64,000 nucleotides of DNA from Patescibacteria group bacterium UBA2135 (GCA_002327685.1 DCXN01000003.1:6981-70980); one strand, 5' to 3'. Positions 4,901 to 61,098 are shown, numbered from the stretch's first letter. The notes: generated by a model from the sequence alone, not told the origin. A program made the numbers and translations.

Positions 4901-5123
4901 AAGAATTAAAAAGAGTCCTTCAAACAAAGGACCGGAGAAACGCTAGCCAACAAAATGGCTAACGAACAATTTCGACCTCGGCAGGACTTCTCGCGAGCTA
5001 CGCTCACGCGCCTACTGTCTCCGATCTTAGATAAAGTAAGTATATTCAATTTAGCCCCCTTGTCAATGCTTCAAATACTTAAACTTTAAATATTTAAACT
5101 CTTCCGTCTTTAACAAGAAACCA

Positions 5124-5144
5124 GCCGCCAATAAATTGGCGGCC
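5124..5144 (-). terminator. Putative terminator hairpin
   Basis: GCCGCCAAT-AAA-TTGGCGGC, with a T-rich tract on the minus strand. Confidence 0.4.
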
Positions 5145-5197
5145 GATAAGCCCATATCCATTAACCCCACTTCTAGCCATCTTCTTAAAATGACCAA

Positions 5198-5413
5198 TTA
5201 AGCGCGGTGGCCATGAACCGGACATCCTGGCCAAAACCTGTGAACACTCGGACAAGTACATTTATACTTCTTCCCCATTCTCTTTGTTTCTTTCCTCATC
5301 CTTTTCTTCATTTTTTTTCTTAACTCTTTCTTCGCCTCCTTCAACTCTTCCCTCATCTTTTTCTTCGCTTCTTTATTCAACTTTTCACCTAGCGTTTGGA
5401 CACCCTTCGCCAT
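5198..5413 (-). CDS. Small Lys-rich protein with a C-terminal Cys/His cluster
   Basis: 71 aa. ...KYKCTCPSVHRFWPGCPVHGHRA. A duplicated 90-bp leader lies directly upstream. Confidence 0.4.
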   Translation of the reverse strand: MAKGVQTLGEKLNKEAKKKMREELKEAKKELRKKMKKRMRKETKRMGKKYKCTCPSVHRFWPGCPVHGHRA

Positions 5414-5503
5414 GATCTTACTCCTCTAGTCTTAGGTTTATGTGAACCAATCTGTCACCTATATAACACAACTTACAATTTAACACCAGCGTTGCAAGAA
5501 AAT
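5414..5503 (-). promoter_or_regulatory. Duplicated 90-bp 5' leader (copy 1)
   Basis: Identical to 5824-5913. Ends ...AGACTAGAGGAGTAAGAT(C/T)AT-ATG, with a GGAG RBS. Confidence 0.55.
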
Positions 5504-5625
5504 TACAAAAAAGCAGGCCGCCCGCTTCGCCACCACCCGCTCCGACGAGTCGGAGACGAGGCGAGAGGCAAGCAAACGACCCGTTACAAGACTTCTTCCC
5601 TATTCTCTTCATCTCTGTGTCTTTA

Positions 5626-5823
5626 TCAGATATCCATGTCATCAATCGACACCCTCATCCCCTCTGCCATTTTTTTATCCGCCTCTTCTTTCTCTTTTAC
5701 TTTAGCCAATTTACCACTATCCACCACCATGATCGAATTAATCCTATCAATCGTCTTCTCCATTTTCTCCATTTTTTTCTTTAATTCTGCCACTTGTACT
5801 TCAATCTCCTCCAAAGTCGACAT
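5626..5823 (-). CDS. Small coiled-coil protein
   Basis: 65 aa, charged heptad-like sequence. Preceded by the same 90-bp leader as the 5198-5413 gene. Confidence 0.4.
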   Translation of the reverse strand: MSTLEEIEVQVAELKKKMEKMEKTIDRINSIMVVDSGKLAKVKEKEEADKKMAEGMRVSIDDMDI

Positions 5824-5913
5824 AATCTTACTCCTCTAGTCTTAGGTTTATGTGAACCAATCTGTCACCTATATAACACAACTTACAATTTAACACCAGC
5901 GTTGCAAGAAAAA
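5824..5913 (-). promoter_or_regulatory. Duplicated 90-bp 5' leader (copy 2)
   Basis: Identical to 5414-5503. Confidence 0.55.
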
Positions 5914-5925
5914 AGGCAGACTACG

Positions 5926-5947
5926 AACAGTCTGCCCTCACATATCT
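5926..5947 (-). terminator. Rho-independent terminator
   Basis: GGCAGACT-ACGAAC-AGTCTGCC hairpin with a T6 run on the minus strand. Confidence 0.55.
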
Positions 5948-6285
5948 TTAGTCGAATGAATCTCAAATCCTTCATCCTGAACATCCTGAGCCCACCGCGT
6001 ATCTTTCCCAAGATACGGATTATGATCCTTACACACCCTATATTTCTCTAATTTTACACTTCCCTCACTTCCGCCACTTCGCAAATCACGTGATGCTGAC
6101 TTACCCGGCGGAATAAAAAAAACGGTAAATTGAGCTTTGTTTAAACATTTTTCTCCCGTATTCGTATGCGGACACTCGCAACAAATCTCCCGCAAAACCT
6201 TGCCCTTCCTAAATTTTCTAAACATCCTAAACTTTCTCAAAAAAGCAAACCAATTCCACAACATCAGCTTACCTCCTTTTTTCAA
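5938..6285 (-). CDS. Hypothetical protein (Cys-containing)
   Basis: 115-aa ORF containing CCECPH...C. Confidence 0.35.
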   Translation of the reverse strand: MKKGGKLMLWNWFAFLRKFRMFRKFRKGKVLREICCECPHTNTGEKCLNKAQFTVFFIPPGKSASRDLRSGGSEGSVKLEKYRVCKDHNPYLGKDTRWAQDVQDEGFEIHSTKDM

Positions 6286-6328
6286 ATCTCCAAACTAACC
6301 ACATCTTACCACCTTATCGCCGCGCTAT

Positions 6329-6397
6329 CGCCGCAAGGCCCGGCCTTACATGGGGATAAACTGTGGAAAACCTACCCCGCAAGGCCCGGCCTTGCGG
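6329..6397. repeat. REP-like element, family 1 (copy 4)
   Basis: CGCCGCAAGGCCCGGCCTTACATGGGGATAAACTGTGGAAAACCTACCCCGCAAGGCCCGGCCTTGCGG. Confidence 0.8.
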
Positions 6398-6720
6398 GTT
6401 TTTATATCCCACCCCTAAACACAAAATCACCTCATTTCCTAGAGCCTATTCACAATCTCGCCGCAAGTGAAAGAAATACTGCTCGCCGGCCAAAATCTCG
6501 AAATTCAGGCTGCAAATTATTCAAGACTCGTCGCCATATCTCGATATGCCTCCTCGTCTTTCATAATTTTCGCTCTGAATTTCGAAATTTATGGCTCGGC
6601 GCGAGATCGTAAACAGGCTCTAACGTCTCAAAATTAAAGCATCATTTTTTAAAAAACAATCCCGAAAATACATTATAAATTAAGGGTATTTTAGGAGCAT
6701 AAACAATCACCAAAAAACAC

Positions 6721-6749
6721 TTGACAAACAGATTTAACCATGATACACT
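6721..6749 (+). promoter_or_regulatory. Sigma70-like promoter (TTGACA-17-TACACT)
   Basis: TTGACAAACAGATTTAACCATGATACACT followed by RBS AGGAGG and ATG at 6794. A near-identical motif is at 14810-14838. Confidence 0.55.
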
Positions 6750-6793
6750 CTACATGGAGACTAGAACTTCACACTTGACTAGGAGGACATCAA

Positions 6794-7210
6794 ATGTCCA
6801 AAAAGGATGCGACGAAAGAAAGACAGCCCAGCGGTCCTTTCAGCGGACTCAGGTCTTGGCTACGTAAAGCCAAAACACCGGAGACCAGCCTAACAGCTAG
6901 CTCCCCAGAGAACCAGCCTGAAAAGCAACCGCCAGAGCTAGTCTTGACGCATCAAACCCATAAGCACAAACGGATCGGCTCGATCAGTGTATCGGTGCCA
7001 GTGCTCGCCAAAGGGAAAATTCTCACCCTTAACTCCCGCCAAGACAAGGGTCAGACACCATTGACTCGTGTCTTATTCAACGAGGTAGCAGGGATCGAGG
7101 GTATGATACTTCGACAGCACAGGGTTCAGATCAGAAGAGTCAAGGGTTCTCACTGGAACCAAATCTTTCCCGATGCAGAAAAAGTTATCCGTCAACATCT
7201 GACGGGCTAA
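6794..7210 (+). CDS. Hypothetical protein
   Basis: 138-aa ORF with a consensus RBS and promoter. Confidence 0.55.
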   Translation: MSKKDATKERQPSGPFSGLRSWLRKAKTPETSLTASSPENQPEKQPPELVLTHQTHKHKRIGSISVSVPVLAKGKILTLNSRQDKGQTPLTRVLFNEVAGIEGMILRQHRVQIRRVKGSHWNQIFPDAEKVIRQHLTG

Positions 7211-16054: not shown

Positions 16055-16891
16055 TTATACCACAGTCACCCGTTGTTCTTGTTCTTGTTCTTGTGTTTGT
16101 TGCTGTGATTGTGTGCTTTCAATGTCTTCAGCACCTTCAGCATCTTTAACGTCTTCAACAATCTCAATCCGCGCATCTGCCTGCATATCCACCCTCCCCT
16201 CCTCACCCTCCAATTCAAGAATCTCTTTACTATACGTCAACCACGCGTTGATAAATTCATCAAATTCAGCAAAATCCTCAAAATATTCAGGGAAAAATTC
16301 TTTAGCGTTACTGACAATAGCGCCCTCCGGACGTACTTTCCCGATGAAATCCAAATAGCTTGAATAGTCATAATGCAAAAGCTGTGTGCGAGCTTCTTGC
16401 AGATTTTGAATACCTTTTTCTTTCCATGTTGAGTCAACTAGTTTCACCGGATTTAAATGAATATATGCAAAAAGATATCTCAAGTAATTATCGTGGATGG
16501 CGCGTTTTGACTTAAATCTGCCCTCAAACAACGTACCAGAACGTTCATATTTCGTATTGAAGTACATTGAATACGCCGTCATCAATTTTTGCATGAATCG
16601 TGAAATACCGTTTGGCTGTATTTGTCTTATGAGAATGTGAAAATGATTGGGCATCAAGCAATACGCGCCAATCGCCACAAGAGGTTTTCGTCGTGAAAAC
16701 ATTTTAAGCAATTCAGAAAAAGAAAGCGTTCTTAGAACTTCCATCCTAATTTCACTTTCACCATTACACACATACAATAAACGCATAAAACGATCATAAT
16801 CTTCCCTTTTGAGAAAAATATCACGCTTATCAACACCTCTATTATAGAGATGATAAAATTCATTTTCTGCAAATTGTTCTTTACGAGCCAT
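16055..16891 (-). CDS. REP-associated tyrosine transposase (RAYT; IS200/IS605-like Y1 HUH transposase)
   Basis: YHLYNRGVDKRDIF...AYCLMPNHFHILI (the HUH motif) ...GTLFEGRFKS...YLRYLFAYIHLNPVK (the catalytic Tyr). REP-like elements lie on both sides. Confidence 0.75.
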   Translation of the reverse strand: MARKEQFAENEFYHLYNRGVDKRDIFLKREDYDRFMRLLYVCNGESEIRMEVLRTLSFSELLKMFSRRKPLVAIGAYCLMPNHFHILIRQIQPNGISRFMQKLMTAYSMYFNTKYERSGTLFEGRFKSKRAIHDNYLRYLFAYIHLNPVKLVDSTWKEKGIQNLQEARTQLLHYDYSSYLDFIGKVRPEGAIVSNAKEFFPEYFEDFAEFDEFINAWLTYSKEILELEGEEGRVDMQADARIEIVEDVKDAEGAEDIESTQSQQQTQEQEQEQRVTVV

Positions 16892-47808: not shown

Positions 47809-47862
47809 TACACTTCATTATAGCATTGAATAAGCAAGGTACTAGGTTTTAAGCTAATCGCG

Positions 47863-48053
47863 CCGCCAGGTCTGGCCTTGAGGAGGAGCGGAGCCGAGTC
47901 TGACTCGGCGCAGCGACGGGAAAAGGCCGGACCTTGCGGAACGGTTTTTTCTAATTTGCAGACCTTGAGAAAAAAACTGTGCAGCCAGGTCTGGCCTTGA
48001 GGAGGAGCGAAGCGACGGGAAAAGGCCGGACCTTGCGGAACAGTTTTCCGCAG
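47863..48053. repeat. Family-2 GC-rich repeat array (two large units)
   Basis: CCAGGTCTGGCCTTGAGGAGGAGCG(G/A)AGC...GACGGGAAAAGGCCGGACCTTGCGGAAC(G/A)GTTTT x2, one unit with an inserted CCGAGTCTGACTCGG hairpin. Confidence 0.8.
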
Positions 48054-48150
48054 TTTCCCCCCATTCCATCAGAACCTTGCAAGGTTTTGATAGAATGTTA
48101 ACAATTTAGGCAAAATTCCCCTCAATTTTATATGAATACAGCAATTTTTA

Positions 48151-48190
48151 AACTATTTCAGTTTATCAAAATGAAGGTTCCTCGTGCGCA
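48151..48190. repeat. 36-40-bp direct repeat abutting a stop codon (copy 1)
   Basis: AACTATTTCAGTTTATCAAAATGAAGGTTCCTCGTGCGCA. Copy 2 is at 49075-49113. Confidence 0.6.
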
Positions 48191-48844
48191 TTAGTTCTCT
48201 AAATCAACAACAGTAATATCAGAAAAAACCTCTTGCAATACACGTAATCGTTCTGATGATTCTGTTTGTGACTTCTTTGAAAATTCTTTAATACTGTTTT
48301 CAATGTCATTTGTCATCTCTCCTGTTTTTTTAAATTTTTCTAATTCTCCATTTGGTAACATTGGCCAAAAATCTTTTGGTAAGCCACTCGTACCCTTTCT
48401 AACTCCTCCAATAAATCTCTTGTAGATACGGGATGTATATTTTTCTATTGGTGTGGGGTGAATGTATATAAATTCAAAATCAGACAACGTATCTGAAAAA
48501 ATACTTTTTAATGTATGTGGGTTTGCCATTGAACCTTCCACTACAACATTACCTCGCAATATAGCTTTTCGTAACTCTTGTTGAGCACCGGTAATAAAAG
48601 CTTCTCTCCATTCTGATGGTTCACCAAAACGATATGCCACAACATAAGCTTTAGGAACATCATCTACACCAAATTTTTCAACAACATTTTTTTGTACAAT
48701 TTGATCAAATGAAATCGATACATACCCAAGATCCTCTACTAGTTGATGAGCGAATGTTGTTTTTCCTGTTGAGGTTTTACCACTGATATATACAATCTGT
48801 GGTTTTGTGTTTTTAATCTTCTTATATACTCCCTCAAGATTCAT
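48191..48844 (-). CDS. P-loop NTPase / nucleoside(-tide) kinase-like protein
   Basis: Walker A IVYISGKTSTGKTTFAHQL. 217 aa. Confidence 0.55.
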   Translation of the reverse strand: MNLEGVYKKIKNTKPQIVYISGKTSTGKTTFAHQLVEDLGYVSISFDQIVQKNVVEKFGVDDVPKAYVVAYRFGEPSEWREAFITGAQQELRKAILRGNVVVEGSMANPHTLKSIFSDTLSDFEFIYIHPTPIEKYTSRIYKRFIGGVRKGTSGLPKDFWPMLPNGELEKFKKTGEMTNDIENSIKEFSKKSQTESSERLRVLQEVFSDITVVDLEN

Positions 48845-48909
48845 AAAATTATTATAACGCTGAATACTTAATATATTGAATAAATATAGTACCTCGTGCT
48901 AGCTCTAAG

Positions 48910-48995
48910 ATGCGGAGACTGAGGGATTCGAACTGTCTCGGTCACCCCGATACTAAATGTTAAGTGCGGGGTGTTAGGGATTCGAACACTTCTCG
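48910..48995. other. tRNA-like T-loop motifs (GGGATTCGAAC x2) that do not fold into a canonical cloverleaf
   Basis: Two GGGATTCGAAC motifs 52 nt apart plus a 7-bp stem CACCCCG...CGGGGTG. Manual folding on either strand failed to give T-stem pairing. Possibly a degraded tRNA or att remnant. Confidence 0.2.
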
Positions 48996-49074
48996 TGCGT
49001 AATCACTACGCTCAAATTGCCTAACCTCCTCAAGCTAAAACTTTTGTCGATCAAGCCCCGTAAAGTTTATTTTT

Positions 49075-49113
49075 AACTATTTTAATTTATCAAAATGAAG
49101 GTCCTCGTGTACC
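49075..49113. repeat. 36-40-bp direct repeat abutting a stop codon (copy 2)
   Basis: AACTATTTTAATTTATCAAAATGAAGGTCCTCGTGTACC. Confidence 0.6.
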
Positions 49114-49824
49114 TTAATTTTTAACATCATATTTTAAATGAAGATAGGAATGTTCTAATTGTTTGCAAGATACTAATGTAAGTGGTCTCAACTTCATCAA
49201 CTCGAAGTTATTATGTAATGACTCACCATCAATAAGTGTTGCTGTATTCTTTCCTCCGACTAAAATTGGTGCAACAACAATGGAAAGATGGTCAATCAAT
49301 CCAGCTCTTAACAAAACGGAGTTTAGTGTTCCTCCAGATTGAATTGTGAGCTTGTCAGCCCCATTCTTTTTTAACTTATAGAGTACATCTTGAAAATCAA
49401 TTTCATTATTATATAAAAGAAAAGTAATCTTATCATTCTGACCTGAAAGAATTTTTGCAGGATGATTAGCGTTTGTACTTACAACAAACACGCCTCTAGT
49501 TTTTTCAGCCAAGTATTCAATCCCTTCAGAAGTTAGGTGTGGCTTATTATCAACTACCACGAATGAAACAGGAATACCATCTTGAAATACCTTTTTCTCA
49601 TTTACTCCAATTTTTTCAAAAACTCTACCCGAGTTAAGCGAAAAAGGATCCGTAGTCTGTTCAATATCATAGTATTGTTTCAATCCTTCTTTTACCCCAT
49701 CAACATTAAGGAAATCCTTATCGACATCCATTGCGTCGGTATCTCCAGTCGATATTTTCCCATCGACAGACATAAGCATGAATAGTGTTGTTTCTGGTCT
49801 TTCCATATATTTATCATAACGCAA
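49114..49824 (-). CDS. RibD C-terminal domain / dihydrofolate-reductase-like reductase
   Basis: TLFMLMSVDGKISTGD...VVVDNKPH...IVVAPILVGGKNT. Confidence 0.6.
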   Translation of the reverse strand: MRYDKYMERPETTLFMLMSVDGKISTGDTDAMDVDKDFLNVDGVKEGLKQYYDIEQTTDPFSLNSGRVFEKIGVNEKKVFQDGIPVSFVVVDNKPHLTSEGIEYLAEKTRGVFVVSTNANHPAKILSGQNDKITFLLYNNEIDFQDVLYKLKKNGADKLTIQSGGTLNSVLLRAGLIDHLSIVVAPILVGGKNTATLIDGESLHNNFELMKLRPLTLVSCKQLEHSYLHLKYDVKN

Positions 49825-49894
49825 TCAATAAAATTGCATAACAAATTGCCTACAGATAAATGTGAATAATCGCCATTAATTTTCTGATATTTTT

Positions 49895-51361
49895 TTATTC
49901 CTCTCGCAACTTATCCAACTCAAGAGTTTCGTCTATGCGAATCTGATTTACAAAATCCGAAACGTGAGAAACAAGCACCATGGCCCCTTTATATTGATCT
50001 AGCGCCTTTGCGATGATGGGTAGATGGCGAAAGTTTATATGATTAGTAGGTTCGTCTAAAATAAGCAGGTTCGGTCTCATAAGTGCAAGTTGTGCAAATG
50101 ACACGAGTCCTTTTTGTCCTTCGGACAAATTTCCTATCTTTGTGTATATAAGCTCTCCTGTTATCAAAAATCCTGCCGCCAAACTCCTCATCATCTGTTC
50201 ATCCTCTCTGTCCATTGCCTTCTTCAGCGTGTCATACACAGTCTCATCAAAATCAAGCATGGAAAAATCCTGTCTATAATAGCCCACTCTCACACCATCT
50301 GAAATCTTTGCACCCTGCTCTGTGCCATGCGCCAAATTATTAAGCAAAGTACTTTTTCCTATGCCATTTGGGCCAGTTAAAAGAAGATGCCTATTTTTCG
50401 TTAAAGATACGTCCGCCACTCTAGAAGACAACTTATCGCCTTGCATAATAGAGAGTGCGTGAATCCGCAAAATCTCGCCTACGTGATGCTCCTTAACGTC
50501 TATATCAAATTTTCGTATAGTTTTGTCTTCACGACGCACATCCACTTTGGATTCTTCCGCCTCTTGCGCACTTTCACGCATACGTTTTGCCAAGATCCTC
50601 ATGCGACCTCCTTTGTTTGCGAAAAAGTTTGCCTTGTCTTTTTTCTCTTGAATATGTTTTTCAAATTGAGCGTTTTTTCTACGTTCTTTTTCTACACGAG
50701 CTACTATCTCCTTAACCACGTCTTTGTAGTCACCAACATATTTTTCTATTTTTCTCGTAAAGACATCTAGATACAAAACGCCTTCCGTGAAAGCATTTAA
50801 AAAATCTGCATCATGAGAAATCACGATAACCGTTTTTTTGTAATCAATCAAAAACTTTTTCAAATGTGAAATCCCATCTTTATCTAGATTGTTTGTGGGT
50901 TCATCTAAGAGCAATATGTCAGGGTTCTGTATTAAAGCAGATGCCAAAAGAAGGCGCGCCTGCTGTCCTCCAGAGAAATCTTTTATGAGCTTTTCCTTTG
51001 GGGCGTGTAGGTTTACGACTTCTAAAATCTTATCTATACGCACATCAATGTTATATATTTTCTCCGTGAAGCACTCTTGAAAAAACTCACGCACAGAAAT
51101 TTCAAGCTGGTCACGTGGTATTACCTGTCTAGCTATCGCCACGGAAAGATTCGGCGCGAAATGAATATCCCCTTCTGCAGGCGTACGCTTTTTTGTGATT
51201 AGCTCAAACAAAGTGCTTTTCCCTGATCCATTTTGCCCCATGAGAGTTATTTTTGAGCCACGACGCACAGTAAAGCTCACCTCATCTAATATGGGTTTCT
51301 TTGCGCTGTATTCAAATGACACCTCGTCAAATCTTATTATTACTTCTGTTTTTTCTGACAT
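49895..51361 (-). CDS. ABC-F family ATPase (tandem ABC domains, no transmembrane domain)
   Basis: Two Walker A motifs (GQNGSGKST; GPNGIGKST), two signature motifs (FSGGQQAR; LSEGQKG), and a charged interdomain linker. Confidence 0.85.
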   Translation of the reverse strand: MSEKTEVIIRFDEVSFEYSAKKPILDEVSFTVRRGSKITLMGQNGSGKSTLFELITKKRTPAEGDIHFAPNLSVAIARQVIPRDQLEISVREFFQECFTEKIYNIDVRIDKILEVVNLHAPKEKLIKDFSGGQQARLLLASALIQNPDILLLDEPTNNLDKDGISHLKKFLIDYKKTVIVISHDADFLNAFTEGVLYLDVFTRKIEKYVGDYKDVVKEIVARVEKERRKNAQFEKHIQEKKDKANFFANKGGRMRILAKRMRESAQEAEESKVDVRREDKTIRKFDIDVKEHHVGEILRIHALSIMQGDKLSSRVADVSLTKNRHLLLTGPNGIGKSTLLNNLAHGTEQGAKISDGVRVGYYRQDFSMLDFDETVYDTLKKAMDREDEQMMRSLAAGFLITGELIYTKIGNLSEGQKGLVSFAQLALMRPNLLILDEPTNHINFRHLPIIAKALDQYKGAMVLVSHVSDFVNQIRIDETLELDKLREE

Positions 51362-51371
51362 AGTTAGCAAA

Positions 51372-52090
51372 GCATTTTAATCAATTTAATCAAAAAGAAC
51401 GCACGCGGTGCGTCCTTGCTCCTTGTTGACAGAACTATACTACAAATCCACTACCTACGCAATCATCTTTTTGAAACGCCGTCAGGTCTGGCCTTCCCGC
51501 CTGCCATCGCCCGACTGACCTTTGCGGACGATTAGGCAGTGGCGGGCAGGGAGGAGGAGCGGAGCGACGGGCCTCGGTCTCGGATAATTCTATACCAAGC
51601 ACTACAAGGCTTTTCTGACGGCTTTTAGTTTACTGTTTCAATGCTCCTCGGAACAAAGTGTAAATTGCTTATCCTCGTAAAACAAGCTATCCTTAGATTG
51701 GATGCTTGAGCAGTGCCGAGGCTAATACGGCGAGATCAGCACGCTAGCCCGAATACCTCGACAGTACTTTGACCGGCCTTAGCTTCAAAGTTGAGGAACG
51801 TCGTCCGTAACTATAACGGACCTTCGCTTGAGCATCCACTTTCTTCTAGCCATTTCTTTGGAAGTGGTTTTTCTATTATAAGAAGCTCTTCATACTCTGA
51901 TCATACTCTGAACCTACCCCGAACTACCTGACTGCTTAGAACGATGTTGAAACCTGTTTTATTTTATCAAATTAATCACTCGACAAAGATTCAAATGGCA
52001 GATAATGCTCGAATATTTTAATGAACATCGAGCTGTCCACAGAAACAAGAAAGCCGCCTACTTCAAACATAAAGTGACGGCTTATATTAA
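51372..52090. other. About 720-nt ORF-free region (candidate leader or ncRNA) containing a disrupted family-2 repeat
   Basis: No ORF of 60 aa or more in any frame. Mixed GC. Several stems (AACGCAC-GCG-GTGCGT; CCGCCTGCC...GGCAGTGGCGGG). The family-2 core (51481-51584) carries a 50-nt insertion. Confidence 0.35.
51481..51584. repeat. Family-2 repeat, disrupted copy
   Basis: GTCAGGTCTGGCCTTCC-[50-nt insert]-AGGGAGGAGGAGCGGAGCGACGGGCCTCGGTCTCGG. Confidence 0.6.
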
Positions 52091-52477
52091 TTAGGAATCT
52101 CCGAGAAAAGAATCCAGACTCTCTTTATTAAATTCCATGCAATGACCAACGATAACCAGAACATCACGTGGCTTAAACCACACTGCTTCAAGATTCCGCC
52201 CTTTGAACTTATCTTCGCCTTCACGAAAATTTCGCTGAAATACAGCAGTTGAGGCACCGTGTGTTCCATATTCATGAAAAAACCAACGCTGTCCATCATC
52301 TTCTAAAGGATCCCCTCGAAAGAGGAGGCATGGAACAGTACTTTGTTCACTTGGACCAGAAAACGCGACAGCATCGATTTTTGGAAAAGTACGTCCTTTG
52401 CAATCAAAAAGGTGTTGCCCTTTTACCTCAACCACTTTTAACACAGTAACAAACAAACCTTTTGATATCTCAAACAT
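52091..52477 (-). CDS. Hypothetical protein
   Basis: 128-aa ORF with a protein-like composition. Confidence 0.4.
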   Translation of the reverse strand: MFEISKGLFVTVLKVVEVKGQHLFDCKGRTFPKIDAVAFSGPSEQSTVPCLLFRGDPLEDDGQRWFFHEYGTHGASTAVFQRNFREGEDKFKGRNLEAVWFKPRDVLVIVGHCMEFNKESLDSFLGDS

Positions 52478-52604
52478 TTCTACCTACCTTTAAATTTAAT
52501 ATCAAAATTCTAATACAGTAATAACACTATGTAATTTCTTTTGCAACAGATTACCGCGGGCTAACGAGATAGTTTTTTATGCGACGTAAACGGAAACAGT
52601 CACA

Positions 52605-53459
52605 TTAATTTCTCACATTCTTCCCATCGCTCTTAAAAATAATCGTCCCCTGCTCGTCTGTCCTCAAAATTTCACTTTCAAATTGTTCAAGGCGCGCAAT
52701 CACCTCTTCGTGAGGGTGACCGTATCTATTTGCCACGCCAGCCGATATGACAGAAAATAATGGTGACGCATACCCAAGAAACAAATCGGATGTAGAGGTT
52801 TTTGAGCCATGATGACCAATCTTCAACACATCAACGTCAATCATTTTCCCATCAAGCGAAACAACAAAGTTTTCCATCTTTTGCGACGCGTCACCTGTGA
52901 AAAGAAATGATGTATCTTCATAAATCAGTTTCGCAATAATTGATGCATCATTCGCGCTCACTCCAGACATGTCTCTGTCAGGAAACAAAACAAGTAAGTA
53001 CACTTTTTCATCCAAAAATATTTTCATTCCACGCCGCGCTATAACATTCTCACTTCCCTCTAACGCAATCAAACGCACTAGCTCCTCGTACGCACCTGTT
53101 TCTACCGCAATACCAGGCTCAATAAAATAATCAACTTTAAAATTTTTCAAAACCGCCGGAAGCCCACCGATATGATCTTTGTCCGGATGTGTTGCAAGCA
53201 CAACATCAATTGAACGATCATAAAATGGCATAACAGTGGAAAGCTCCTGCAAAACGCGAGTATTCCCTCCACCGTCTATAAGCATTTGATTCCCATTTGG
53301 CGCTTCAATAAAAACCGCATCCCCCTGCCCCACATCCAAAAACGCAACCGTCAAAATCCCCGCGCGTTCCTCACCAAAAATCGCACACCAAATCAAGGCG
53401 TTCGCAAAGAAAAGCACGCCAAGAAAATACCATTTTGCGTTTTGGCGGATAGATTCCAT
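52605..53459 (-). CDS. Metallo-beta-lactamase-fold protein (ComEC/Rec2 C-terminal domain-like), membrane-anchored
   Basis: LDVGQGDAVFIEAPNGNQMLIDGG...HPDKDHIGG...GHHGS. N-terminal transmembrane segment. Confidence 0.75.
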   Translation of the reverse strand: MESIRQNAKWYFLGVLFFANALIWCAIFGEERAGILTVAFLDVGQGDAVFIEAPNGNQMLIDGGGNTRVLQELSTVMPFYDRSIDVVLATHPDKDHIGGLPAVLKNFKVDYFIEPGIAVETGAYEELVRLIALEGSENVIARRGMKIFLDEKVYLLVLFPDRDMSGVSANDASIIAKLIYEDTSFLFTGDASQKMENFVVSLDGKMIDVDVLKIGHHGSKTSTSDLFLGYASPLFSVISAGVANRYGHPHEEVIARLEQFESEILRTDEQGTIIFKSDGKNVRN

Positions 53460-53533
53460 TTAGGAGAGTATAGCAAAGAGAACAAAAAGAAAAAGCCGTC
53501 TCGCCAAACGACGAGACGACAAATATAAAACTT

Positions 53534-53926
53534 CTAGATATCAAAGAAAAGATACCCAAGCTCCTCACCAGCTGGTTGGCTTGAAAGCGACACGCAATCT
53601 TCACGCGAAGAAAACTGTTTCACTAAACGAAGACATGTCGCTACCCCCTCTACAATATCAGAGTGTAGTGAGAGATTCTGGTTTTGCGTGCTCCAATTGC
53701 ACGGAGCATGTCGTGCCCTTCGCAAGATTCCCAAAACCATGTCGCCGTTGCTGTTTTGGGACACGCCTGCTAACTGCTCAATGAGACGGTCTAGATTTTC
53801 GTGCGAATGGTTGATATCTGGACGCGGAATTGACGGCATTGGTCCCTTCCGAATCAGTTCATCCGCGGCGTTGAATGCTAACAGCGCTAAATCGCTAAAA
53901 ACTAAGGCCACAAGGTCCTCCTTCAA
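53534..53926 (-). CDS. Hypothetical protein in a locally GC-rich, probably acquired segment
   Basis: 130 aa. Local GC is about 50%. Confidence 0.4.
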   Translation of the reverse strand: MKEDLVALVFSDLALLAFNAADELIRKGPMPSIPRPDINHSHENLDRLIEQLAGVSQNSNGDMVLGILRRARHAPCNWSTQNQNLSLHSDIVEGVATCLRLVKQFSSREDCVSLSSQPAGEELGYLFFDI

Positions 53927-54004
53927 GGGTAATTCTGCATTCTTTTTACATGTAACTCAAAAACTTGTCAAGCAACAGTGACGCTCCTGTACATACACAA
54001 AAAA

Positions 54005-54277
54005 TTACCGATAAATATCCTTCCGATTGCCAACGTAAAGAAAATGTACGTTCTTGGCATCAATAAAACGAAATTTGATACGATAGTCTTTATTAATCCA
54101 AAAACTCCACACTTGCTCATGATGTGGTTCCAATTTTTTAGCACGAAGAGACGTGTGAAATGGGTTCTTACGAAATAATTCTGTCTTCATTTCTGCTCTT
54201 CGTTGAACAACAGCTGGTAGCTTCTTATATAACCGAGTAAACGTTGGTGTGATAAAAATCTCCAACATACATATCAT
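54005..54277 (-). CDS. relE: RelE/ParE-family toxin
   Basis: ...LPAVVQRRAEMKTELFRKNPF...KLEPHHEQVWSFWINKDYRIKFRFIDAKNVHFLYVGNRKDIY matches the RelE/StbE pattern. Confidence 0.75.
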   Translation of the reverse strand: MICMLEIFITPTFTRLYKKLPAVVQRRAEMKTELFRKNPFHTSLRAKKLEPHHEQVWSFWINKDYRIKFRFIDAKNVHFLYVGNRKDIYR

Positions 54278-54474
54278 TTACGAAGTTCGCGCAAGGATTT
54301 TATTTTGCGCGCCTTACCTTCTTTTGATTCTTTCAATGATTTGTTGAGAGATTTTAGAAAGTCAGAGTTATACAACCCAAAAACATCCGCCAGCTTTTCC
54401 CACTGGTTGAGGTCAATTTCTATCTTAATTTTTTTCCGTGAGTTTAGTTTATCTAAAATAGTTATTGTTGCCAT
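54274..54474 (-). CDS. Antitoxin (RelB/Phd-like small protein) overlapping the relE start
   Basis: 66 aa. Its stop overlaps the relE start by 4 nt (ATGA). Confidence 0.5.
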   Translation of the reverse strand: MATITILDKLNSRKKIKIEIDLNQWEKLADVFGLYNSDFLKSLNKSLKESKEGKARKIKSLRELRK

Positions 54475-54547
54475 TCGCTTTAATTTATCACACTTTTACC
54501 GATTTCGCAATTTCGTTTCACCCGAAAAATGAAAGGTTGCAATGCCT

Positions 54548-54672
54548 GTTTTACATCCACATCGTCAAAACCGCGCGCTCCTCACCAAAAATTGCGTACC
54601 AAATCAAAGCATTCGCAAAAAAAAGCACGCCAAGAAAATACCATTTTGCGTTTTGCTTAATATTCTTCATAA
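54548..54672 (-). pseudogene. Duplicated 5' fragment (promoter-proximal region plus first ~40 codons) of the metallo-beta-lactamase gene
   Basis: About 125 bp at roughly 85-90% identity to 53327-53459. Forms direct repeats around the 130-aa gene and the relBE cassette. Confidence 0.6.
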
Positions 54673-55581
54673 GGACAGCGATTCAACTACCTTGTTGCCC
54701 ATCTCTAATCCAGTCTGCCAAGCGGCTTTAAGCATTTTAGGGTCAGTAGTTCTTGATCGAACATTAAAATTATTCGGAGGAGCAATAAGTGTTATGTGGG
54801 GATTGTTTTGTATTGATTCCAAGTCCATTTTTAACCTGTCTTCTGTTGTTGCATATGAACGATACAAAGTTGGATCGTCAAACATCCAACTCATAAACTT
54901 TCCCTCAAATATGTTTTTCATCTTGTAACTAAATTTTCTTCGGATTGGGCTGTTCAAAATAATAATTATCTTGCTATTTGGATGCAATTTCAAAAGAGAG
55001 TCCAGCCCGATGATATCCATAATGGCTCCGTCTATATACCGAGAGCCATCAATGACTGGAACTTTATGAACGTATGGAAATGGTTTAACACCAGCTTTTA
55101 GTATCTCCAGGATATCTGGACGACGTGCTTCAATATATTCAACAGTATGAGTCTCTAGGTTGAAAAGCTTCACATACAACGGAATTGACTGAGAAAGAAT
55201 CCGATTGGTATTCAAATACTTTTCGTTTTTCACAACATTCATTAAATAATCAACGTCAAGCGCATCTTGTAACTTATTTTGTGGAACCGATTTTATAAAT
55301 TTATTTTGGAATCGTTGCCAAGTGCCAATCCAAAACCCCTTAGTAGAAATGAAATTTTTATTTAAATCCTCCCAAAACATAGACGACCCATACGGTGTTT
55401 GTCTTGCTAAAAAATATGCTCCGATCAAAACACCGGCGGATGCTCCATAAACAGCCTTTATCCTTGGATAAATACTATGTCGTTCAAATGCTGTGGAAAC
55501 TCCTGCCCCGAATGATCCTGTCATGGTGCCTCCGGCAAAATATATAACAAACTTATCTGAAGAGTCTTTTTTATTATTCAT
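54667..55581 (-). CDS. Patatin-like phospholipase
   Basis: Oxyanion hole FAGGTMTGSFGAGV (GGxxxG) and nucleophile elbow GASAG (GxSxG). Confidence 0.75.
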   Translation of the reverse strand: MNNKKDSSDKFVIYFAGGTMTGSFGAGVSTAFERHSIYPRIKAVYGASAGVLIGAYFLARQTPYGSSMFWEDLNKNFISTKGFWIGTWQRFQNKFIKSVPQNKLQDALDVDYLMNVVKNEKYLNTNRILSQSIPLYVKLFNLETHTVEYIEARRPDILEILKAGVKPFPYVHKVPVIDGSRYIDGAIMDIIGLDSLLKLHPNSKIIIILNSPIRRKFSYKMKNIFEGKFMSWMFDDPTLYRSYATTEDRLKMDLESIQNNPHITLIAPPNNFNVRSRTTDPKMLKAAWQTGLEMGNKVVESLSL

Positions 55582-55745
55582 TAGTCTTCATTTTACAAGA
55601 TTACCTATTTTTTAAAAGAATCTTTTTACCTCACTGAAGTTTTACAAAAGGATTCCATTGCAGATTAACATACATATCAGTACAAAAAGAAAAAGCCGCG
55701 ACTACCCAAAGCAATCGCGGCTCTACCTGGAGGATTTAAAGCAAA

Positions 55746-56399
55746 TCAACCAAGACATTCCCTAATTCTATTCAACGTCTCTCTACCATCTAAATCACGA
55801 ACGCTTGATGCCGGAATATTTACATGAGCTAATGTACGGTATCGTTCAAGTCGCCTTTTAAGCAAAATTGGATAACACCGCCTTAAGGCGTCCTCTTTGG
55901 ACTCACCTGCGTTCATTGAAAAATGACCGCACCAAATAACAGGTTTTGGATTACTAAAAAATTGCTCTATCATGCAGTCTAGAGAATCATTACCAACGTC
56001 AAGGTGAACTACAAGACAACTCTCGTACAAAACCTGAAGAGTCTCTGCATTAAGATGAACAACACTTCCTGTCGTGTCAAGCACAAGGTTTTTACCGCTT
56101 GTCTGAATTGATGCGCGTCTAGTAAGTTGGTCTTCAGATCTTAAATAACATTTTTCACGCTCTTGATAACCTGTATCAGAAGGATGCCCTAGCCATGAAG
56201 ATATATCTGTCATGGAATGAAAATTAAACATTTCCTGGATTTTTTCATCAACATGATGCCAGGAAAAGCCTAGTTTACAACAAAGCACCTTTGATCTATA
56301 ACTTTTCCCTGCATTTGACATCCCGACGAAAGAAAGTCTCAGGGTTTGCCCAGCAACGTGCGTATCAAACTCGCTCTGCTTCAACTGTCCAATGCTCAT
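55746..56399 (-). CDS. P-loop kinase (shikimate/gluconate-kinase-like fold)
   Basis: Walker A FVGMSNAGKSY, then LVLDTTG. Confidence 0.5.
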   Translation of the reverse strand: MSIGQLKQSEFDTHVAGQTLRLSFVGMSNAGKSYRSKVLCCKLGFSWHHVDEKIQEMFNFHSMTDISSWLGHPSDTGYQEREKCYLRSEDQLTRRASIQTSGKNLVLDTTGSVVHLNAETLQVLYESCLVVHLDVGNDSLDCMIEQFFSNPKPVIWCGHFSMNAGESKEDALRRCYPILLKRRLERYRTLAHVNIPASSVRDLDGRETLNRIRECLG

Positions 56400-59610: not shown

Positions 59611-61098
59611 TTACAACTGGACGGGTTTTTTCTTTACAAGATATAAGAGCGCCAGTCCATAGAGAGCGTAAACAACCACCATCACCCACACAGGAAAAGA
59701 TGGCACAGAAACAGAAGCAAACGGTAAACGTGAAAATATATCTACAATGGTAAGCTCATAACTTAAAAGAGCGTAGGCAATATATGCAAATGGTAACGAC
59801 AAAATAATGTGTACAATGCCAAACACGCCGGTTAAAAATCCGAACAACATAGTAAGTGGAATAAATGCAAGAATAAGAATATTGACAACAACGGCGACAA
59901 TACTAAACTGCCCTGTCATATATAAAAGAAGTGGCAAAACAAAAATCTGTGTTGCAATAGTTGCCGTTGCAAACTCTCTTAATCCAAATTTTTTGGGCAC
60001 AAAAGAAAATATGCCCTGCATATGCGGCGCGAGATAAATCAACCCAACCGTAGCAAGAAAAGAAAGCTGAAACGAAGCGTCAAATATTAAAATTTTGGGA
60101 TTATGCACGAGCATTGCAATACCGGCAATTAAAAGTGCTGTTGTAATAGCGTAAAGTCTCCCTGTTGCTCTCGCGAGAAGTACTAACAACGCCATGATGC
60201 TCGCGCGGACAACAGTCGCCCCTGCTCCTGTCATCAAAGCAAAGCCTACAATTCCAAACACTGAAAGCCCTAGTGCAATACCGCGCGGAGCAAATGAGGC
60301 AAGACGTCCGATCCATTCCGCGACAATAGTTACGTTATACCCCGACAAAACGACTATATGGATAATGCCGACTGCGCGAAATGCTTCAAGAAGTTCTTCT
60401 CCAAGCGATTGCTTTGCTCCGAACACGACACCACCTACAAGTGATGCATGCGGTTCAGGAAGTGTAAGCGAAACGCTTTTAAGAAGCTTATTCTTGATTA
60501 AAAAAAGCTTCTGCGCAAATATATTTCCGCCGCCAACCCCAATTTTTTCAACTTCAGGATAAAACATCTGATAAAAAACATTGTCTTTTTTCAGATACCC
60601 AACATAATCAAACACTCGATCAGAGTCGTCTTGAGCAAAATTTTCCGGCTCATCTAAAATGCCCGACACTCGTACAACATCCCCATATTGAAATTCGGGA
60701 TATTTATCTACCACTAATAAAACATTTACCTTTTCCAGAATCTGTCTATCGGGAAGTATGGCATCAGCGCGTACAGTTAATTTTGTATGTCCCTCTCTAA
60801 CATCCGGCTCACGAACAACAGCGCCCTCCAGCACAATCTGTGTATCAATATGTTCTCCAAGTGGTGGTAAAATGTCTCCGATATCAAAACGAATGGTTCC
60901 AAGAGCAAGCGCGAAAATAAAAATTCCTGCCACAACAAAATAGTGTCGATTGCGTATACTCAAAACCGTAAGAATAAAAAACGTAACAGCAAGAAAGGTT
61001 AAAAAATAAACAAAAGTATCACCAAAATCAAAAAACGAACGAAATGCAATTCCGCCCGTAAAACCAACAAACGCAACAAGAAGCCATTTATTTATCAT
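59611..61098 (-). CDS. comEC: ComEC/Rec2 competence channel protein (DUF4131 plus Competence domains; no attached beta-lactamase domain)
   Basis: Polytopic membrane protein with ...AVGIIHIVVLSGYNVTIVA.... The beta-lactamase-like domain is encoded separately at 52605-53459. Confidence 0.8.
   Translation of the reverse strand: MINKWLLVAFVGFTGGIAFRSFFDFGDTFVYFLTFLAVTFFILTVLSIRNRHYFVVAGIFIFALALGTIRFDIGDILPPLGEHIDTQIVLEGAVVREPDVREGHTKLTVRADAILPDRQILEKVNVLLVVDKYPEFQYGDVVRVSGILDEPENFAQDDSDRVFDYVGYLKKDNVFYQMFYPEVEKIGVGGGNIFAQKLFLIKNKLLKSVSLTLPEPHASLVGGVVFGAKQSLGEELLEAFRAVGIIHIVVLSGYNVTIVAEWIGRLASFAPRGIALGLSVFGIVGFALMTGAGATVVRASIMALLVLLARATGRLYAITTALLIAGIAMLVHNPKILIFDASFQLSFLATVGLIYLAPHMQGIFSFVPKKFGLREFATATIATQIFVLPLLLYMTGQFSIVAVVVNILILAFIPLTMLFGFLTGVFGIVHIILSLPFAYIAYALLSYELTIVDIFSRLPFASVSVPSFPVWVMVVVYALYGLALLYLVKKKPVQL

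Follow-up and report, generated by a model that had tools for sequence, protein, structure and literature searches.

The present analysis concerns a 64,000-nucleotide stretch of the genome of Patescibacteria group bacterium UBA2135 (GCA_002327685.1, DCXN01000003.1:6981-70980), referred to as the window throughout, and in particular a gene for a metallo-beta-lactamase (MBL) domain protein whose 5' end is present twice, with a toxin-antitoxin (TA) pair and an ORFan lying between the two copies. All genes at this locus are located on the minus strand and are described here in the order of transcription. A shikimate-kinase-like gene (SKI, 55746-56399) is followed by a terminator hairpin with a 15-bp stem (55692..55724), detected in a terminator scan, and by a relic of the MBL promoter and start (55639..55672), recognized in alignments compared with shuffled sequences. 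Next come a patatin-like phospholipase gene (54667..55581; Pfam Patatin, 6.2e-11) and an orphan open reading frame (ORF) of 39 codons (54551..54670; MKNIKQNAKWYFLGVLFFANALIWYAIFGEERAVLTMWM, then stop), whose ATG overlaps the patatin stop codon (TTATGA), which gene callers annotate as a gene, and which is interpreted below as the displaced native 5' end of the MBL gene. This ORF contains copy B of the repeat (54563..54655). The left junction and the TA upstream region (54475..54562), with blocks conserved with other TA loci, lead to a candidate antitoxin gene of 66 aa (54274..54474), a toxin gene of 87 aa with the RelE/YoeB/YafQ fold (54005..54268; the longest ORF, 54005-54277, has 90 aa), and a GC-rich ORFan of 130 aa, or 125 aa from an internal start (53534..53926). 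An intrinsic terminator with an 11-bp stem and a T-run (53481..53520; 53495-53520 in the terminator scan) closes the TA/ORFan unit. The extended -10 box TGCTATACT (53467..53475), read from the sequence, lies 7 nt before the ATG of the intact MBL gene (52605..53459; Pfam Lactamase_B, 2.8e-14), whose product starts MESIR and whose 5' part contains repeat copy A (53349..53444). The GC content of the segment with the 130-aa ORF (0.48-0.51, against a window mean of 0.417) bears out the first-pass annotation of this DNA, which had placed this ORF in a locally GC-rich segment.

A repeat finder run over the 64-kb window revealed a direct repeat (53360-53444 and 54571-54655) in which 78 of 85 bases are identical (binomial P ~1e-37, or ~4e-28 corrected for all position pairs in the window), and which is present in two copies only in the 64 kb. 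When one 3-nt gap is allowed, the repeat continues through TTTTGACG and reaches ~96 nt (53349-53444 and 54563-54655), corresponding in both copies to MBL codons 6-37, with copy A in the intact MBL gene and copy B in the 39-codon ORF. The first-pass annotation had described a 125-bp duplication of the MBL 5' end that included the promoter-proximal region. The similarity of the two segments is indeed significant, but past codon ~37 (53327-53348 and 54548-54562) it is at the level of shuffled sequences (251/1000 and 432/1000) and, therefore, the supported repeat measures ~96 nt rather than 125. Neither does it comprise promoter-proximal DNA, since both copies start inside the coding sequence and copy B is preceded by the 3' end of the patatin gene. 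The idea of a junction motif (TTTTTATT) common to the window and to L087, L102 and L054 was dropped because of the same lack of significance against shuffles (the labels L004-L179 designate the related loci or contigs compared with the window).

The contigs carrying these proteins derive from Tara Oceans marine metagenomes, and the same structure was found in at least 11 contigs from different Tara samples and assemblers (SPAdes, MEGAHIT, and Tara scaffolds). Identical structure across independent assemblies indicates that the repeat is not an assembly artefact. Two short Tara scaffolds (L004 and L005) end inside copy B or ~40 nt beyond it, a pattern that a chimera of co-occurring strains, one with a patatin-MBL and the other with a TA-MBL arrangement, might also produce; these ends are probably assembly breaks caused by the repeat, with population heterogeneity at the joint as an alternative. 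Nevertheless, L004 runs through copy B into the insert, and the end of copy B and the TA upstream region share at most 8 nt, which is too short for a k-mer mis-join. Together with the number and diversity of the contigs, this leaves the probability of a chimera negligible.

The MBL protein is named "competence protein ComEC" by NCBI and corresponds to one part of a split ComEC, namely its C-terminal nuclease domain; the DUF4131 and Competence part is encoded by a separate gene (59611-61098) ~6 kb from the MBL gene. The stand-alone MBL-domain gene carries its own N-terminal membrane helix. The gene order ComEC_N, SOD (on the reverse strand) and MBL is conserved in ~100 relatives, all of them Patescibacteria metagenome-assembled genomes. 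The MBL protein itself forms a singleton cluster, its nearest relatives being 87% (L086) and then 68% identical. In L086, whose protein begins MKNIKQNAKWYLLG, the patatin gene (5090-6004) overlaps the MBL gene (6001-6867), with no DNA between them, and the same uninterrupted patatin-ATGA-MBL arrangement was found in L179 (MBL 66% identical); both of these MBL genes show the MKNIK start and the ATGA overlap. Thus, homologous loci with the uninterrupted arrangement, for which the first-pass annotation had suggested searching, do exist. L086 and the window share two separate alignments, of which one covers the patatin gene and copy B as far as codon 37 (92.4%) and the other the MBL gene with copy A, codon 6 up to the stop (86.6%); since both alignments cover codons 6-37, 96 nt of the L086 target occur twice in the window. 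Because L086 and L179 are uninterrupted, copy B with its MKNIK start is regarded as the native 5' end of the patatin-coupled MBL gene, and the stretch from ~54562 down to 53445, about 1.1 kb, is extra DNA relative to the uninterrupted arrangement. The orphan ORF, predicted to form a single hydrophobic helix and apparently still translationally coupled to the patatin gene, may encode a small membrane peptide.

The upstream region of copy A has a different make-up. Here, a hairpin is followed by GGCTTTTTCTTTTT, the -10 box, 7 nt, and ATGGAATCTATCCGC, and neither the terminator nor the -10 box has a counterpart at copy B, where the patatin 3' end occupies the corresponding place and no promoter-proximal MBL DNA is found. 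In most relatives, a -10 box lies 6-8 nt before the MBL start and the N-terminus reads M-E-x-(I/L/F)-(R/K)-x-N. The layout upstream of copy A matches that of relatives devoid of the patatin gene (L169, L178 and L144), with CTCTTTGCTATACTCT of the window being identical in L144, and it appears to represent an ancestral-type MBL 5' end with a putative leaderless-type promoter. In L169, an S41 peptidase gene is followed by antitoxin and toxin genes of the same TA family and then by terminator, TGTATACT and MBL gene, and L178 shows this type of arrangement minus the TA pair. A 15-nt match between the window and L169 (CGGCTTTTTCTTTTT) corresponds to the terminator tail, and the homology is supported by longer alignments that include the -10 box and the start codon. 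A possible decayed orphan fragment upstream of the L169 antitoxin (16-nt match, 11/500 shuffles) was suggestive and was not used. In L054, the MBL gene is immediately preceded by a decayed remnant of the same TA pair, made up of antitoxin residues 1-21 and, fused to these, the C-terminal 27 residues of the toxin. L054 also contains (1535-2845) a 37-nt terminator, with hairpin and T-run, that is directly repeated with 95% identity and flanks 1274 nt harboring the TA remnant and two ORFan genes; the second terminator copy ends just before the MBL start, and this duplication is the same kind of scar, in intergenic DNA. In the window, the MBL gene would be uncoupled from the patatin gene and transcribed from its own leaderless-type promoter behind a terminator, and the TA pair, which has its own conserved upstream block, could also be read from the patatin operon. 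The capture of a promoter by the TA operon, suggested in the first-pass annotation, has to be turned around: the duplicated fragment carries no promoter, and it is the insert that supplies one to the MBL gene.

The differences between copies A and B are unevenly distributed. Codons 2-5 (MESIR in copy A, MKNIK in copy B) differ at 8 of 12 bases, and codons 6-33 at 7 of 84, six of these seven being third-position differences (P=0.007). When L086 serves as the outgroup, three changes fall to copy B alone, none of which alters the protein, and neither of the two branches, A and B, is longer than the other. The third-position identity of copy B to L086 (0.75) is at background level, below that of the patatin gene. 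Judged by their mutual differences and branches, the two copies have diverged in the way alleles do. A self-similarity scan for orphan MBL fragments in 160 related loci uncovered two more cases beside the window, L087 (residues 1-58) and L102 (residues 1-43), in which an orphan MBL fragment lies upstream of the intact gene, with ORFan cargo between them. Copy differences at first, second and third codon positions amount to 15/5/29 in L087 (p=1e-4) and 13/7/17 in L102, and, although 25-33% divergent, both fragments are free of stop codons. The two L102 copies are each more similar to the MBL gene of another genome than to one another; in L087, the two copies are strongly diverged and remain each other's best match (66-67% aa). 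On the basis of this divergence, the coding bias and the affinities of the L102 copies, the L087 and L102 copies are regarded as alleles of different lineages and not as local duplications.

These comparisons bear on one alternative, a duplication in situ, by which a ~100-nt piece of the resident MBL gene would have been duplicated upon insertion of foreign DNA, through template switching or integration of a circle by a single crossover, and would have diverged later, the orphan peptide being kept by selection. Copies A and B are closer to each other than to L086 (9 differences in codons 6-34, against 12 and 14), the sharp shift from 8/12 to 7/84 differences resembles a junction at codon 5/6, integration of circularized linear DNA through a single crossover, by which the homologous segment becomes duplicated, has been documented (PMC3240628), and the orphan ORF, besides being hydrophobic and coupled to the patatin gene, has remained intact. 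However, the changes on the orphan branch are all synonymous and show no acceleration; a redundant fragment would not be expected to evolve in this way, except if it had a function. A divergence of 8% would date the event back almost to the separation from L086. Considering also the strongly diverged, coding-biased copies of L087 and L102, which in L102 are not even closest relatives, an origin by duplication in situ seems quite unlikely.

With regard to the cargo of the insert, the toxin could be modelled with AlphaFold2 (AF2) from 36 homologues with a predicted local distance difference test score (pLDDT) of 90.1 and a predicted template modelling (TM) score of 0.80. A Foldseek search of the PDB with this model returned 40 matches at E<=1e-3, all of them RelE/YoeB/YafQ/HigB proteins (TM 0.68-0.80, and 0.75-0.80 to YoeB, YafQ and RelE). 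The predicted structure is that of a RelE fold of the RelE/YoeB/YafQ branch (a pair of N-terminal helices against an antiparallel sheet), in line with a full-length match to the PHROG family phrog_1213 "RelE-like toxin" (E 4.2e-9). Scores against sequence profiles were below the cut-offs (in brackets) both in Pfam (HigB-like 21.9 bits [27]; ParE_like 18.3 [24.4]) and in NCBIfam (Txe/YoeB 19.5 [51.8]; RelE_StbE 16.4 [27.9]), and a sequence search of the PDB gave no match. Hence, of the strong RelE/ParE toxin announced in the first-pass annotation, the fold stands and the strength at the profile level does not. The 38 homologues of the toxin, all from Patescibacteria, are ~87 aa long and share 63-82% identity, and the family-invariant residues (K44, K45, R63, H75, R82, K83, D84 and Y86) are compatible with ribosome-dependent mRNA cleavage by basic and aromatic catalytic residues. 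No matches to the toxin were found in viral contigs, phages or plasmids.

The stop codon of the 66-aa antitoxin ORF overlaps the start of the toxin ORF, as had been noticed before, and a gene of 51-72 aa is called directly upstream of the toxin in L166-L176, none being called in L177. The only profile match of the candidate antitoxin is a weak one to DUF2683 (21.1 bits; Pfam cut-off 27), with no match to RelB, YefM or DinJ and nothing relevant in NCBIfam, PADLOC, PHROGs or the PDB. Since it matches no known antitoxin family, the RelB identity and the name "RelBE" are not justified. An alignment of six TA loci identified two conserved blocks in the TA upstream region, 54522-54532 (TCATTTTTCGG) and 54482-54499; none of 1000 shuffles aligned as well as the window with L054, and the upstream block is shared with L054 and L169. 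Nothing common to the TA loci compared was found beyond ~70 nt upstream of the antitoxin or after the toxin stop. The family adjoins MBL genes in three lineages (window, L054 and L169), and its other members are mostly located at unrelated sites away from MBL genes. In L177 (4001-4904), a small TA cluster is made up of the RelE-like toxin and, next to it, a second TA pair of ParE-like type in divergent orientation. The pair thus resembles type II modules of the RelE/YoeB/YafQ kind in its 87-aa RelE-fold toxin, in the small gene upstream in the same operon and in its scattered chromosomal sites, and departs from them in its sub-threshold profiles, in an antitoxin unmatched by RelB, YefM or DinJ, and in its restriction to Patescibacteria. 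As for the ORFan, its only match among 5.8 billion proteins is itself, and no family was found in Pfam, NCBIfam, PADLOC or PHROGs, nor any match in plasmids. Its GC content at the three codon positions (0.58/0.38/0.50) is coding-like with a raised third position, and its AF2 model is unusable (pLDDT 40). The GC-rich segments gave nothing in Rfam even at E<=1.

The first-pass annotation had explained this arrangement by the insertion of a mobile TA cassette, with target duplication as one possibility. An insertion containing a TA pair is supported; self-mobility is not. No inverted repeats were found at the ends of the insert, which holds antitoxin, toxin and ORFan only and no integrase, transposase or recombinase gene; nor was a recombinase found in the inserts of L087, L102 and L054, an integrase among the window ORFs scanned, or a shared end sequence among nine loci with this TA family. 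The only transposase-like product among those ORFs, encoded ~37 kb away (16055-16891, minus strand), has 278 aa and an IS200-like Y1 transposase domain (Pfam E 6.6e-8). A target duplication produced by transposition is ruled against by the length of the repeat, 96 nt being far above the typical 2-15 bp, and the copies differ like alleles, with six of seven differences at third positions.

The positions of the junctions were compared among the three cases. The orphan fragments end at codon 37-43 in the window, 41-43 in L102 and 50 in L087, that is, within 14 codons, which has a probability of ~2e-4 if junctions were uniform over the detectable range. The blocks of high identity between copies (codons 6-37 in the window, 22-43 in L102 and 43-50 in L087) do not define a common crossover core. 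In 85 diverse MBL genes, nucleotide conservation peaks in a block of codons ~37-64, with identities of 0.68-0.76 where the gene mean is 0.55, the first 36 codons being among the least conserved, and L179 and L086 share a 32-nt perfect match inside this block despite 66% protein identity. Because this block is the most conserved, the junctions can be placed at the 5' edge of the best homology anchor.

Junction clustering in a conserved motif could also be a sign of a small, non-autonomous integrative cassette, composed of the TA pair and the ORFan, that inserts site-specifically with a surrogate MBL promoter and 5' end as attachment site, the integrase acting in trans or having been lost. Such an element would account for direct repeats of the target gene end flanking the insert, for the restoration of the gene by insert-borne sequence, for the empty sites in L086 and L179, and for the proximity of this TA family to MBL genes in three lineages. 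In these respects, the locus recalls phage 21 and e14 in the icd gene of Escherichia coli, elements that encode an integrase, use a fixed core site and replace the 3' end of the gene: in both situations, direct repeats of the target gene end are present and the insert supplies an alternative end differing mainly at synonymous positions. However, the window has neither integrase nor fixed core, it is the 5' end that is affected, and the alternative end is the ordinary, apparently ancestral MBL upstream region of relatives rather than a surrogate. Furthermore, none of the inserts of the window, L087, L102 and L054 carries a recombinase, and only the distant Y1 domain could be invoked; crossover positions differ (codon 37-43 versus 50) and the identity blocks do not coincide; most other TA loci lie away from MBL genes and have no common ends; and viral contigs, phages and plasmids gave no matches. 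An integrative cassette is, accordingly, considered improbable.

The allele-like copies and the complete ancestral-type MBL 5' end of the right-hand copy point instead to recombination between alternative haplotypes of the MBL upstream region, in comparison with which a self-mobile TA cassette is less likely. We consider it roughly an even bet (probability about 0.5) that recombination once equipped the ComEC-MBL gene with a second 5' end and that the repeat is what this event left behind. On this view, the resident haplotype would have been patatin-ATGA-MBL, with an MBL protein starting MKNIK, and the incoming DNA would have come from a related lineage without the patatin gene, carrying an upstream gene, the RelE-like TA pair, the ORFan, the terminator, the -10 box and an MBL gene starting MESIR. 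One crossover would have been homologous, inside or beyond the MBL gene, and the other end would have been joined illegitimately to the resident gene at codon ~37-43. As a result, the first ~37 resident codons would have been stranded as the 39-codon orphan ORF, followed by TA pair, ORFan and terminator, and a promoter of its own, 7 nt ahead of the ATG, would since drive the working MBL gene. The repeat, the empty sites, the allele-like divergence, the promoter and start of ancestral type, the recurrent cases and the grouping of the junctions are direct observations; the donor and the polarity, that is, which haplotype was resident, are inferred, as is the enzymology, for which RecA-dependent homology-facilitated illegitimate recombination (HFIR) after natural transformation is proposed. 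HFIR combines one homologous and one non-homologous end, depends on RecA, and typically uses 3-10-bp microhomology (PMC3240628). Among Patescibacteria, cultured Saccharibacteria alone are known to be naturally competent; they are so in a comEC-dependent manner and integrate linear DNA by homologous recombination (PMC10633639), and the window encodes RecA, SSB, RecJ, FtsK and both ComEC parts.

Several observations weigh against this scenario. The donor lineage is unsampled in the databases searched, where the nearest MBL protein is 87% identical and the next 68%, and the right-hand crossover was not located, since no step in identity to L086 appears along the MBL gene. Classical HFIR usually pairs the insertion with a deletion of similar size (PMC3240628), and no deletion was detectable at the window locus. 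In addition, resident and incoming DNA are 92% identical in the region where the illegitimate joint is placed, and simpler geometries for HFIR can be conceived. Given that codons 2-5 and codons 6-33 of the copies differ so unequally, either the 5' end of the donor was already a mosaic or gene conversion later homogenized part of the repeat. The clustering of the junctions, with only three cases, could reflect instead detectability, which requires fragments of at least ~30 codons, together with a tolerance of short fragments only. Finally, the patatin gene is less diverged from L086 at synonymous sites than all of its neighbors (identity 0.858 versus ~0.72), which would fit patatin and copy B as the incoming DNA.

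This last point requires a closer look at the patatin gene, which seems to be an older insertion itself. The relic upstream of it (55639-55724), which the first-pass annotation had overlooked, is a third partial copy of the MBL 5' region, consisting of a terminator tail, a degenerate -10 box (TATGTT, 55667-55672) and a start (ATGGAATCCTTTTGTAAAAC, 55639-55658) that encodes MESFCKT before a stop. The same order is found in the window and in L086: hairpin, GGCTTTTTCTTTTTGT, -10 box and AATCTGCA, followed in the window by ATGGAATCC and in L086 by ATGGAGTCTCTCCGC (MESLR). The tail GGCTTTTTCTTTTTGT of the 55692-55724 terminator is repeated at 53479-53498, and this terminator region can be aligned with the DNA that precedes the MBL gene in L086, L169 and L178. 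The alignment of the window relic with the MBL upstream region of L169 was equalled by 0/1000 shuffles, and that with the upstream region of copy A by 6/1000. The L086 relic ATGGAGTCTCTCCGC aligns with copy A of the window (0/1000 shuffles; shared start ATGGA(A/G)TCT(A/C)TCCGC) and shares a perfect 21-nt run with the L169 MBL promoter (0/1000 shuffles). From this homology it follows that the patatin gene was itself inserted into the MBL 5' end, after codon ~5-8; CAAAAC(GC) is present at both joints of this older insertion, which would have brought the MKNIK start. A 10-nt direct repeat (GTCTCTCCGC) in the relic of L086 (4948-5040) flanks ~48 nt absent from the window and represents a further small insertion.

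Identity at 4-fold degenerate sites between the window and L086 reaches 0.858 in the patatin gene, against 0.67-0.74 in ComEC_N, SOD, SKI, MBL and a 642-aa gene (p=0.0014). Likewise, L179 and L086 are 0.66 identical at these sites in the patatin gene and 0.43 in the MBL gene (p=0.004), and synonymous-site identity to L179 is 0.66-0.68 for patatin and 0.40-0.44 for MBL. These values indicate that the patatin unit has been exchanged laterally in recent times among these lineages. It is on this ground that the opposite polarity deserves consideration: a TA-ORFan-terminator-promoter-MBL haplotype like that of L169 would be the resident one, and a patatin unit with ~37 codons of an L086-like MBL gene would have come in, with its homology anchor to the left, in the SKI/terminator region, and its illegitimate joint ahead of the TA pair; toxin-antitoxin addiction may have selected against recombinants in which the TA locus was cleanly replaced. 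The lateral mobility of the patatin unit and an MBL divergence from L086 at background level would agree with this. Nevertheless, the left junction of the relic (AAAAC..TTxAGTGA) is the same in the window and L086, with background-level divergence and a 65-nt indel, copy B is likewise at background level in its third positions and below patatin in identity, and the high-identity patatin tract begins only ~50 nt before the patatin ATG. From these data, the window lineage probably had the patatin gene already, which suggests that the high-identity tract is a later homologous patch on a patatin gene already in residence. Moreover, the sister L086 and the more distant L179 are both uninterrupted patatin-MBL loci. 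The opposite polarity is thus regarded as unlikely, although less so than the duplication in situ.

Taken together, the older patatin insertion, the orphan fragments of L087 and L102 and the clustering of the junctions raise the tentative idea, which we hold to be somewhat improbable as it stands, that the start of the separate MBL gene, a DNA-uptake gene itself, is in Patescibacteria a hotspot of serial N-terminal displacement. The conserved block of codons ~37-64 would serve as a one-sided anchor for transformed DNA from diverged relatives, which would bring cargo (TA pairs, patatin lipase, ORFan membrane proteins) along with a new promoter and start and leave one orphan 5' end after another behind; the survival of recombinants may depend in part on TA addiction.

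The other flank of the MBL gene is also variable. Immediately downstream of it, the window (47840-52604) and L086 (6868-11270) each hold ~4.5 kb of unrelated DNA, and the two become syntenic again once the 642-aa gene (91% identical at the protein level) is reached; this slot, empty in L169, L178 and L179, constitutes a second variable region. A GC-rich stretch at 51400-51900 (up to 0.575 GC), between a 128-aa ORF and an ABC-F gene, lies in the 4.8-kb segment absent from L086, L169, L178 and L179. No plausible ORF is present in it, Rfam gave nothing up to E<=1, neither a tRNA nor a tmRNA was found, and the z-scores of its folding are modest (-1.7 and -2.0). The 64 kb as a whole yielded neither tRNA genes nor Rfam families that reach the gathering threshold.

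The closest parallels to the proposed recombination are the C-terminal displacements described for Rhs and contact-dependent growth inhibition (CDI) proteins and for effector-immunity modules belonging to type VI secretion systems (T6SS) (Jackson et al., 2009; Kirchberger et al., 2017, PMC5361080). There, as here, a module brings its own gene end and cargo, the old end is left as an orphan fragment, events occur serially, and a conserved anchor is combined with an illegitimate joint; indeed, HFIR has been proposed to explain gene-end displacement and orphan fragments at T6SS and Rhs loci (PMC5361080). In contrast to those systems, the end displaced here is the 5' (N-terminal) and not the 3' one, the incoming end brings a promoter, the gene encodes the nuclease domain of a housekeeping competence protein, and the cargo is a TA pair, ORFan or patatin gene instead of a toxin tip with its immunity gene. 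The window can be seen, by analogy, as an N-terminal counterpart of Rhs/T6SS gene-end displacement. As in HFIR studied in Streptococcus pneumoniae, Acinetobacter and Pseudomonas stutzeri (PMC3240628), one homologous and one non-homologous junction, ~1 kb of foreign DNA and competence genes are involved, and CAAAAC(GC) at the older patatin joints is within the 3-10-bp range of microhomology. Differences from HFIR are the lack of an accompanying deletion in the window, the position of the joint inside the homologous gene, leading to a duplication, and that the process is known here from sequence alone.

The best description of the locus is one in which DNA of relatives, acquired by recombination, has serially displaced the start of a split comEC gene, and three generations of this 5' end are preserved in it: the relic promoter and start, the orphan 5' end, and the working gene. 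For annotation, it is a warning that neither the 39-aa ORF nor the "RelBE" label is safe at face value. For the biology of these reduced, uncultured Patescibacteria, it offers a sequence-resolved example of how accessory genes are gained without the machinery of classical mobile elements, by a route that appears to be anchored on a conserved core gene. If the MBL 5' end were truly a hotspot, orphan gene-start fragments could be used as markers of recently imported DNA in genomes of the candidate phyla radiation (CPR), and natural competence, with one of its own genes as landing pad, would be linked to genome plasticity in Patescibacteria.

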